Virus record (IMG/VR): IMGVR_UViG_2602041669_000023
DNA: 8,544 nucleotides
Reading direction: 5' to 3' (one strand)
Origin: a virus
Taxonomy: Duplodnaviria; Heunggongvirae; Uroviricota; Caudoviricetes
The position numbers are program-made. Below are positions 3,001 to 6,000 of the stretch, piece by piece (position 1 is the first letter of the stretch; each line of letters starts with the position of its first letter).

Positions 3001-6000
3001 TGGAGAGTAAATATCTTGCGCAATATGGAGAGATAATTGGCTCGAGTCTGAGATATCGTGGCTATATCCCAGAAATAAGCCTTGTGAGTAATCATCTCTG
3101 TTTTCATGTTTATTGCCATAAATATCATTAAGTATTGGTTGAAACTTCCCTGCATCATCATTTGCTAATGATAATGCAAGGCTGTTCGCGATAGCTGAAC
3201 ACGTGGTAAATGACAGAGCAATAAAGACGCCAGCGATGACACTTTTTTTCATATGTTATTGTCTTCCTTTTTTTTGAATGGTGCGCGTATTTTACATACA
3301 TGAGTTTGTAATACAAGGTGCGTAATCAATATGATGTTTTATAATTGCGTGAGACAATTGATTTATTCGTTTTTTATTGCGGTTTTTATTATCTTTTAAT
3401 GTAACGGTGTTTTTATTAAGTGTGTTTGCGTGGTGTTTTATGTTTTTTATAATTTTTATTTTATTAAATTTAAAAGCATTAGTAATGGCTATTCTATATA
3501 GCAATATAAGAACTGTTACAAAAAAAGGGGGGGGCAATTACAGGTAGTTATGGATGATGAGTGAAACAGATATTGGAGAACCGGGGAATGAATGATGTCT
3601 GAGTCTTATATATCAGAACTCCTTCGCTGTCGCTGGGGGCTCGTGTGCTTATGTCGTTTCCCCGATTCGGTTTTGAACGATTACCGAATGTTGAAGAATT
3701 ATGCCAAAATATAGAAAGGATTTACTGCATGAATACCCAATATTTACAGTATGTTCGTGAGCAACTTATGGCAGCTACTGCTGACTTGAACGGAGCAACG
3801 AAAGGCCAGCTCGAAGCCTGGCAGGAGCATGCACAATTTGATACTGGTACATACAAACGAAAGAAGCCGCGCATTCTGGATGTGGTAACTGGCAAGATGA
3901 TTACGCTGGATAATACGCCGACTTCCGGTAAGCAGTCGTACGCAAAAGGTTCATCCATTGCTTTGGTCAGCCCGGTTGAATTCTCAACCTCTTCATGGCG
4001 CCGCGCGGTTTTGTCTCTCGATGAACATCAGAAAGCATGGTTGCTTTGGTGTTACAGCGAAAGCGTTCGATGGGGGCATCAGGTCACCATAACGCAATGG
4101 GCATGGAGCGAGTTTAAAGATTTGTTAAGTAACAGAAAAATTGCAGGTAAGACACTGGATCGCCTGAAGACGTTAATCTGGCTGGCTGCACAGGATGTGA
4201 AGAGCGAACTTGCAGGGCGTGAGGCCTATGAATACCAGACACTGGCATCATTGGTGGGAGTGACAACAAAAAACTGGTCCGAGACATTTACTGAACGCTG
4301 GGTTGCAATGAAGCACATTTTTCTACAGCTTGATAGTGATGCTTTATTGCTTGTGACGAGAACACGTTCAAAACAAAAGGCAGCATTTTTACAGCAAAAT
4401 ATTGCAAAACTGGATTAAAAGCCATATACTTCATGCAAATTTGGTATGTTGTAAAAAATGTATAAACCCGCTGCCGAGTGGGTTTTTTTTATGCCCTGAG
4501 TTGTACTTGTACGGTAAACATGCTGGCTGCTATGTAATAGAGTTTTTTTAGCCTGTAACCTCTTGACGGCATTGAATTGCTTTTGTTATGAGTTGTAAGC
4601 CAATGTTATCATCTTGTATTGGGGTGGTTATGAAGGATGGTGCGCTGCTCAGGAGTTCTTCACTTTTTATTGCCTACATGGGATGCCTTGGATGGGGGAG
4701 TGCTTATTTCTATGGATGGGGTACTTCTTTTTACTACGGCTTCCCATGGTGGATTGTAGGTGCAGGTGTTGATGATGTTGCCAGAAGTTTATTTTTTGCA
4801 GTTATCGTCATTGCTATATTTCTTATCGGTTGGGGTATTGGTGTTGTATTCTTTTTCGCAGTGAAAAGAAAACATTCTATGCAAGAGCTAAATGTATTTC
4901 GCCTTTATTTTGCTGTGGAATTATTGTTTGTGCCGGCAATTATTGAGTTTTCTATATTGAGACAGAAGATTCAGGTACCTCTTTTGCTACTGTCAGCAGC
5001 GATTGCGCTGGCGGTTACAATTTCGATAAGATCTTATGGGCGATTTTTATCGGTATCATGCTTCTATGATAAGCCATTTATAAAAAAACATTTTTTTGAG
5101 ATTGTGATGATTGCTTTTGTGGCATATTTCTGGCTTTTTTCATTTCTGACAGGATATTACAAACCACAGTTTAAGAAAGAATATGAAATGATTAATTATA
5201 ATGATGGTTGGTATTATGTTCTTGCTCGTTATGATAATTGTCTGGTTTTGTCTACTTCTTTCAATGCAGGTAGTAAAAGGTTTGTCATTTATCAATCAGC
5301 ACAAGATAAGAATCTTCAGGTTGATATTGTAAGGACCAGAATTTAATTGGCTGCATAAATAATATTTTAAGTTGCAAGTTGGCTATTCGTAGGAATAGAA
5401 CCTTAGGCATGCTGAATGCGTTTTCTGAACATTGTTTTATAAACTGTGTCTGCTTGCTGTTGTGATCCTGCTTTTAGTGATGGTGATGATGGATTTCACC
5501 AGCAGGATAATGTTGGTACTGACTGATGGCGCTCTGGTCTGCGGCATTGTGGTATTGCTGTGGCCGATGATGAAAGAACAGAATGAATAATTCTTGACTT
5601 TTTTGTTTACTGTTTATTAAAAAATCAACCGCATGGTGAATCCTCCTTGGAGGGGCTAAATGATCGAGTTTTAAGGGCACGTAGCGAGTTCTGTTTGATC
5701 ATTGCAGAACTTAGCGGGAGGCGCCATGCGTACATCACTAATGTTATTTCCTTCTATCATTTTCCTTGTGAGTTCTGGCTGCGCATGGCGCGGCCTTTTT
5801 TTTATGACCTGCCACTGGCAGATGGTCATCCTGTGATTTGATTCCGGTTCCGGCTTTTTAACTCTGTTCCTGTACACGGGAGAAATTCTATGTCGATTAA
5901 TCGTTATGATATTGGTTACAAGAAGTACCACGTATTGTGTTGAGATAGAAAGCATGGTGCCAGAGGTAAATGCAGCAGCATAATAAAAAAGAGCCAGCGC

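Follow-up and report, generated by a model that had tools for sequence, protein, structure and literature searches.

The DNA analysed here (8,544 nt; IMG/VR record IMGVR_UViG_2602041669_000023; hereafter the window, meaning the whole stretch) derives from a lambdoid (lambda-like) prophage, and between its Q antiterminator gene and its lysis genes it carries a gene (4630-5346) for a polytopic membrane protein of the TfpB/STM1630 family, which is the subject of this study. The gene forms a moron by itself in the cargo slot of the late region, of the type carried by phage 434 and by prophage Sp3 of enterohemorrhagic Escherichia coli (EHEC): it is inserted between conserved phage modules and its GC content (36.3%) deviates from that of Q (45%) and of the lysis genes (50%). 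It had already been annotated, and its family had been catalogued without an assigned function; neither is new from this window. The following features were distinguished at the locus:

3729-4418, plus strand: Q antiterminator gene, Q82-like (Pfam PF06323, 1.7e-91), directly 5' of the TfpB/STM1630-family gene
4402-4430, plus strand: candidate late promoter PR' (TTGCAA-17-TATACT; promoter scan), overlapping the Q stop codon
4442-4450, plus strand: -10-like sequence TGGTATGTT in the initial transcribed region after PR'
4464-4494, plus strand: intrinsic terminator, putative tR', with a 9-bp stem and a T-run (terminator scan)
4559-4629, plus strand: conserved 5' block of ~70 nt travelling with the gene (blastn and alignment with the copy on enterotoxigenic E. 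coli (ETEC) plasmids)
4630-5346 (stop codon included), plus strand: TfpB/STM1630-family gene, 238 aa, five predicted transmembrane (TM) helices and a predicted C-terminal beta domain
5432-5590, plus strand: next gene, for a DUF3927/TciB-like small membrane protein of 52 aa (Pfam PF13064, 3.4e-14; PHROG 1470)
5777-5805, plus strand: first strong intrinsic terminator downstream, beyond the DUF3927 gene (terminator scan)

The open reading frame (ORF) ending at 5346 can be read from three ATG codons, at 4588 (252 aa), 4603 (247 aa) and 4630 (238 aa), the second of which was chosen by the Prokaryotic Genome Annotation Pipeline (PGAP; WP_001302581.1, "hypothetical protein"). The start at 4630 is the best call, because nearly all full-length homologues have 236-238 aa and align from this Met, a Shine-Dalgarno sequence GGGGTGG (4621-4627) precedes its ATG, and the in-frame sequence 5' of it is not conserved as coding sequence in the homologue alignments. 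The gene is real and under purifying selection, the ratio of nonsynonymous to synonymous substitution rates (dN/dS) against close homologues being 0.05-0.09. The N-terminal 78 residues are its most constrained part (0.02-0.06), and the middle TM segment evolves faster than both ends.

Several lines of evidence assign the protein to a catalogued family. PHROG 1521 (unknown function) matches it end to end (2.1e-154; profile positions 1-222 of 222), all 104 homologues carry the precomputed Pfam assignment PF27470 (TfpB), a protein 100% identical to it over the PGAP-called 247 aa carries PF27470.1, and PGAP labels fragments of the family "STM1630 family protein". One old database record is named "protein tfpB" and one Shigella record "TfpB protein". 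A Pfam scan of the target protein gave no match, the release used being older than PF27470, and a scan against NCBIfam returned only a chance match to CrgA (E 0.46). The protein is 100% identical to CPT_434_68 of phage 434, annotated as "putative membrane protein", it matches ECs_0816 of O157 Sakai, and the Salmonella member of the family has published phenotypes (see below). A preliminary description of the window, made from the sequence alone, had placed the protein in no family and had taken it for the best candidate for something undescribed, which is not supported. PF27470, PHROG 1521 and the NCBI "STM1630 family", to each of which the window protein is a full-length match with the same architecture, are themselves families of unknown function, and a literature search found nothing specific on PF27470, tfpB, DUF3927 or ECs0816. 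We take the Pfam name, going by its form, to come from the tfpB ORF of the Moraxella pilin-inversion region; no Moraxella sequence surfaced in the homologue searches. The type IV pilus role that this name suggests was dropped, since no pilus genes lie nearby in any context.

The family is small (72 cluster representatives at E <=1e-3 in an exhaustive hidden Markov model (HMM) search of 1.84 billion representatives). Its members occur in Enterobacteriaceae (Escherichia, Shigella, Salmonella, Citrobacter, Cronobacter, Klebsiella, Enterobacter, Yersinia and Mangrovibacter) and also in Neisseriaceae and Pasteurellaceae. Alignments spanning these three families of bacteria (A1 to A3) revealed a common architecture of ~235-250 aa, in which an aromatic/Gly motif at the N-terminus is followed by five TM helices and, at the C-terminus, a beta domain.

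In the window protein, aromatic residues and Gly abound at the N-terminus, and five TM helices (residues 10-36, 47-78, 89-111, 116-136 and 155-181) are indicated both by hydropathy and by the AlphaFold model. The same model places a beta domain of ~55 aa and five strands at the C-terminus (residues 184-235). The model was built with AlphaFold2 from a 48-sequence alignment (predicted local distance difference test score, pLDDT, 79; predicted template modelling score, pTM, 0.73); an alignment of 26 close homologues had given an unusable model (pLDDT 57.6), and it was the addition of sequences of Neisseriaceae, Pasteurellaceae and the Klebsiella branch that raised the value to 79. The 4-5 helices, aromatic/Gly-rich N-terminus and ~60-aa tail of the preliminary description, as well as its 238-aa low-GC ORF, correspond well to these results. 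A conserved loop, YYGFPWW...D.(V/I)ARSL, lies at the TM1/TM2 junction. Mean numbers of Lys plus Arg over the 48 family members are 2.0 for the N-terminus, 2.4 for loop 2 and 3.3 for loop 4, against 0.0 for loop 1 and 0.4 for loop 3; by the positive-inside rule the N-terminus is therefore predicted to be cytoplasmic, and the YYGFPWW loop and the C-terminal domain periplasmic. In this predicted topology the conserved functional surface would face the periplasm.

The beta domain may be SH3-like. The structure search that had been proposed for the protein gave no confident match to a fold of known function: Foldseek comparison of the model with the PDB reached a best E of 0.6, with SH3-like domains and MscS appearing at low probability only, the best E against BFVD was 0.04, and a sequence-profile search of the PDB gave no matches. 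In the alignments that include Neisseriaceae and Pasteurellaceae, a single glycine is the sole residue that all members share; this speaks against an enzyme, and the possibility was dropped.

The signals upstream of the gene resemble the late control region of phage P22, in whose annotation the late promoter (Plate), the start site and tR' have the same geometry and spacing. By this analogy, the promoter at 4402-4430 would be PR' and the terminator at 4464-4494 would be tR'. A terminator in the same place is annotated in the phage 434 record (OL657226), and a weak match to Rfam STnc240 (28 bits) covers 4425-4494. The "upstream terminator" of the preliminary description is thus real, but it would not insulate the gene, as its agreement with the P22 geometry leads us to read it as tR', which is read through by Q-modified polymerase. 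With the terminator read as tR', the target ORF would be the first gene reached by this polymerase, as is the case for stx. A sigma-dependent pause, at which Q is loaded, could occur at the -10-like TGGTATGTT. PR' and tR' would together yield a leader RNA of ~55-60 nt, and such a short terminated leader might act as a small RNA (sRNA). The corresponding leader of a Shiga toxin (Stx) phage has been reported as an sRNA.

A second set of candidate signals belongs to the gene itself. In the ETEC plasmid copy, linked to the heat-labile enterotoxin (LT) genes, homology to the window extends in the 5' direction as far as ~4559, right at CCTCTTGACG, beyond which the DNA is unrelated. The conserved block that begins there contains two sigma70-like candidates: (i) -35 TTGACG (4563-4568), 18 nt and TGtTATGAG (4584-4592), and (ii) TTGTTA (4583-4588), 18 nt and TGtTATCAT (4604-4612), the latter being the one of the two that was retrieved by the promoter scan. 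The boundary of the block coincides with TTGACG, the -35 element of the candidate extended -10 promoter proposed earlier for the gene; conservation in a plasmid setting that is otherwise unrelated begins at this element. Downstream, the terminator scan found no terminator directly after the stop codon.

The position of the gene is that of known phage cargo. The Q coding sequence has 690 nt, the same call being made by PGAP and in the phage 434 record, and the gene order 3' of the target is DUF3927 gene, P21-type holin, lysozyme, Rz and Rha-like gene (Pfam). In DLP12 the slot between Q and holin is occupied by nmpC, in Stx phages by stx; LT-II is also among the toxin cargo of this slot. The earlier proposal of a cargo unit at the Stx-equivalent position proved accurate, since in related prophages the family sits exactly at the stx site. 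Cargo of the stx1/stx2 type shares with the target the position between Q and holin, and hence the same expected Q-dependent late transcription, and Stx-like prophages have a family member in place of stx between the tRNAs and nanS-p; the target differs from it in being a membrane protein with its own promoter-like element, not a secreted toxin. The Bor/Iss, Lom and LpxR morons are likewise non-essential cargo of deviant GC content, located between phage modules, with their own promoter or promoter-like element and a product directed to the envelope, and the target family is found beside LpxR, PmrD and Bor-type genes. Bor/Iss, Lom and LpxR, however, are outer-membrane proteins or lipoproteins with known activities, whereas the target is polytopic and lies in the inner membrane, and neither an activity nor a structural relative is known for it.

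Published data and annotation together indicate that the phage can do without the gene. 434B is a clear-plaque mutant, which has been propagated and sequenced, and in it DLP12 DNA takes the place of the region with Q, the late promoter and the lysis genes (PMC9119081). According to its annotation, DLP12 lacks the target gene and has nmpC in this slot. As 434B with the DLP12 region still makes plaques, the target gene is dispensable for lytic growth.

Copies of the gene are widespread in E. coli. Positions 4400-5700 of the window are 100% identical to chromosomes of EHEC and other E. coli, this stretch being present in 700 of 5426 complete genomes; a family copy was detectable in 1197 of the 5426, and intact copies at least 99% identical occur in ~680 complete E. 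coli genomes. In a metagenome-assembled genome, a copy 100% identical was also found on a 3-kb contig that had been assigned to "Veillonella sp." in binning and is most likely mis-binned E. coli prophage DNA. Many of the database entries among the homologues are truncated.

A locus search with the close-homologue alignment returned 5 loci. The genomic contexts of the family comprise: (i) phage 434, with the identical gene CPT_434_68 after a Q82-like gene, and prophage Sp3 of O157 Sakai, with ECs_0816 in the same place; (ii) Stx-phage-like prophages, in which a 68%-identical copy occupies the stx position in the order Q, methylase, two tRNAs, the copy with LpxR and PmrD, NanS-p, DUF1378, DUF826 and holin; (iii) Yersinia, where the family gene follows a Q of a different family; (iv) ETEC plasmids, with a 59%-identical copy ~0.87 kb from eltAB and in divergent orientation; (v) the invasion plasmid pINV of Shigella, with a 57%-identical copy in 106 plasmid records, pWR100 among them, almost all of them "hypothetical protein"; (vi) Salmonella, where the copy is STM1630, located beside sseJ (between steB and sseJ); (vii) Neisseria, Actinobacillus and Mannheimia, with a lone chromosomal gene among housekeeping genes; and (viii) islands of extraintestinal pathogenic E. 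coli (ExPEC), in which decayed remains, fragments and frameshifted copies among them, lie next to iroBC and papX. On pINV of all four Shigella species, copies that span at least 80% of the protein are present, as judged from coverage and not from reading each frame. No neighbouring gene is kept from prophages and plasmids to Salmonella, Neisseriaceae and Pasteurellaceae, and the target therefore appears to act as a single-gene unit.

Some of these loci deserve additional comment. In four Stx-like prophages lacking stx (L024-L027, ~3700-7500), the slot after the two tRNAs is filled by the family gene and LpxR, accompanied by PmrD in 2 of the 4; the family gene, LpxR and PmrD form a three-gene cluster with envelope or lipid A links. 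In the ETEC plasmid loci (L014-L019, gene at 5001-5714), the gene for heat-stable enterotoxin STb lies ~3 kb away and insertion sequence (IS) elements frame all of them. The proximity to eltAB hints that the LT locus may have been captured together with phage late-region cargo. The pWR100 copy of Shigella flexneri is located at 166806-167522, between the virA side and spa40.

A member of the family with published phenotypes is STM1630 of Salmonella, whose identity was established from a published knock-out primer encoding NSSMLLAYLGGLGWG. It is 46% identical to the window protein over the full 238 aa, has the same layout of five TM helices and a C-terminal beta domain and likewise lies on AT-rich, horizontally acquired DNA, its function being also unknown. 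It differs in being chromosomal, outside any prophage, and in having its own promoter ~220 nt upstream. STM1630 is bound by H-NS and expressed in medium inducing Salmonella pathogenicity island 2 (SPI-2) and in macrophages (PMC6785131); such H-NS binding and SPI-2 co-regulation were described for the Salmonella member. In invasive ST313 it is silenced by two single-nucleotide polymorphisms (SNPs) in the promoter in all strains tested. Deletion of STM1630 in strain 4/74 led to more intramacrophage replication, and earlier signature-tagged mutants were reported as attenuated in calves and chicks (PMC6785131 S1 Text). Hypermotility of a deletion mutant has also been reported (PMC4219756).

Other cargo was recognised elsewhere in the window. 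The gene for LpxR (lipid A 3'-O-deacylase; 2293-3252, minus strand; Pfam 6.8e-40), between NinH and Q, is a second envelope-modifying moron right beside the target; it is followed by a spacer of 29% GC (3300-3600). At the far end, a gene of the NleG family of type III effectors (8113-8544, plus strand; Pfam PF06416, 1.9e-26) runs off the window, and the prophage therefore also carries type III secretion system (T3SS) effector cargo. The start of this gene lies inside the end of the Rha-like ORF (7508-8152), in which the ORF11CD3 domain match ends at profile position 32 of 54.

The DUF3927 gene is probably co-transcribed with the target. Its family, DUF3927/TciB-like, is named for tciB of phage P1. 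It does not adjoin TfpB/STM1630 members in the other contexts read, and, since it is not kept beside them, it was dropped as a functional partner. Further downstream, a match to an STnc100-like sRNA (RF02076; 5601-5806, plus strand; 37.7 bits against a gathering score of 47; E 1.7e-5) has its 3' end at the terminator at 5777-5805. Two protein calls overlap this match, a 132-aa minus-strand hypothetical protein of PGAP (5671-6069) and a small "membrane protein" of the 434 record (5647-5835), neither of which has Pfam support, and the locus at 5601-5806 may be an RNA gene instead of a protein-coding one. A weak match to the EHEC sRNA Esr41 was noted at 5983-6072 on the minus strand (32 bits, far under the gathering score of 102; E 0.004).

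The likeliest role of the protein, which we favour tentatively and with less than even confidence, is that of a lysogenic-conversion envelope factor altering the behaviour of the carrier bacterium in the animal host. Four observations point in this direction: (i) the company kept by the family, namely LpxR, PmrD, Bor, T3SS effectors and enterotoxin loci; (ii) the SPI-2-type regulation and the infection phenotypes of the Salmonella member; (iii) the loss of the family from extra-intestinal Salmonella lineages; and (iv) its confinement to mostly animal-associated bacteria. The gene could be transcribed by two routes, from its own sigma70-type promoter, which travels with it and would supply the product in the lysogen, and, as for stx, from PR' by polymerase that passes tR' after Q has been produced. 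The product would be inserted in the inner membrane with its N-terminus in the cytoplasm and the YYGFPWW loop and beta domain in the periplasm, and would work alone, unneeded for phage growth, like the envelope factors LpxR, Bor and Lom.

Several points weigh against an envelope-factor role. None of the family members has a known biochemical activity, ligand or partner, and, with a single glycine as the only invariant residue, nothing points to a mechanism. The infection phenotypes in Salmonella are mild, and hypermotility is not among the phenotypes confirmed in the abstract of a follow-up study (PMC4534456). The association with virulence loci may moreover reflect just a shared ride on AT-rich mobile DNA, the ExPEC islands holding decayed fragments.

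Superinfection exclusion, or another membrane-based anti-phage activity, is an unlikely alternative to the envelope-factor role. Under this explanation the protein, produced in the lysogen and in high amounts late in infection, would act at the inner membrane, either by keeping DNA from entering or by setting off abortive infection. The target fits such a factor in being an inner-membrane protein that is encoded by a prophage in a known cargo hotspot, has a promoter-like element of its own and is dispensable for phage growth; its conserved surface is predicted to face the periplasm, where incoming phage DNA crosses, and the loss in host-restricted Salmonella lineages fits a function needed in the gut. 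P22 SieA and lambda RexB and SieB are, like the target, prophage-borne inner-membrane proteins unneeded for growth, and the superinfection-exclusion membrane proteins Imm of T4 and gp15 of HK97 resemble it by description. Comparisons gave no positive evidence, however: there were no matches to the 5027 PADLOC models and no annotated exclusion PHROG, and hhalign probabilities against lambda RexB, lambda SieB and P22 SieA were <=0.4%. The target shows no sequence or profile similarity to these three proteins, is larger, has a predicted periplasmic beta domain and counts many relatives outside phages. The members from Neisseriaceae and Pasteurellaceae stand amid housekeeping genes and not in defence islands or prophages, and induction of the Salmonella member under SPI-2 conditions would be unusual for a defence gene. 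The anti-phage or abortive-infection role proposed in the preliminary description thus found no support.

Less probable again is an orphan immunity function, in which the protein would neutralise, within the inner membrane, a competitor's membrane-targeting toxin (a pore-forming colicin or microcin, or a contact-dependent or type VI secretion system effector). This function would suit a polytopic inner-membrane protein of ~240 aa that stands alone, is horizontally mobile and occurs in bacteria of gut and mucosa, the faster evolution of the middle TM segment is as expected if specificity diversifies, and the family of the neighbouring gene is labelled "resistance to colicin", a label that is a name only. 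Yet no toxin gene is adjacent in any context read, and no Pfam match to colicin, microcin or CPBP immunity families was obtained. CPBP-type protease motifs are absent from the alignment as inspected by eye, and the CPBP/Abi protease was dropped as a candidate for the same reason.

An accessory role late in phage growth is doubtful to a greater degree. The gene would then act, as the first behind PR', in the last minutes of infection, on holin or lysis timing or on the release of cargo, in keeping with its location directly 3' of PR'/tR' and 5' of the holin gene, with the occupation of the stx slot by the family and with its adjacency to the LT genes on plasmids. This is countered by the many members that belong to no phage or lysis cassette (those of Salmonella, Shigella pINV, Neisseriaceae and Pasteurellaceae), by the normal lysis of 434B, which lacks the gene, and by the divergent orientation of the ETEC plasmid copy, which is not co-transcribed with eltAB. 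Least probable of all is a hitch-hiking remnant without present function in this prophage, for, although fragments and frameshifted copies occur in ExPEC islands and truncated entries abound, the low dN/dS, the intact near-identical copies in complete E. coli genomes and the long copies on pINV in all four Shigella species argue against decay here.

Beyond the envelope-factor role, which remains our preferred explanation, a broader and speculative proposal, unlikely on present evidence, would make TfpB/STM1630 a new class of inner-membrane effectors that act as single proteins, have a fold absent among solved structures and, with their periplasmic face, would keep foreign macromolecules (phage DNA or membrane-active toxins) out or reprogramme envelope behaviour during host colonisation. 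Such a class would explain why intact copies are found beside stx-slot cargo, LT, the Shigella invasion plasmid and the Salmonella SPI-2 effectors.

The TfpB/STM1630 family is a "known unknown": a small, well-delimited and strongly conserved single-gene family without structural relatives. A useful product of the analysis is a cross-pathogen map of its locations, in which the putative first late gene of the classic phage 434 is joined with genes of the same family on Shigella pINV, on the LT plasmids of ETEC and in Salmonella. Finding its function would give an annotation to a gene carried by about a fifth of complete E. coli genomes.

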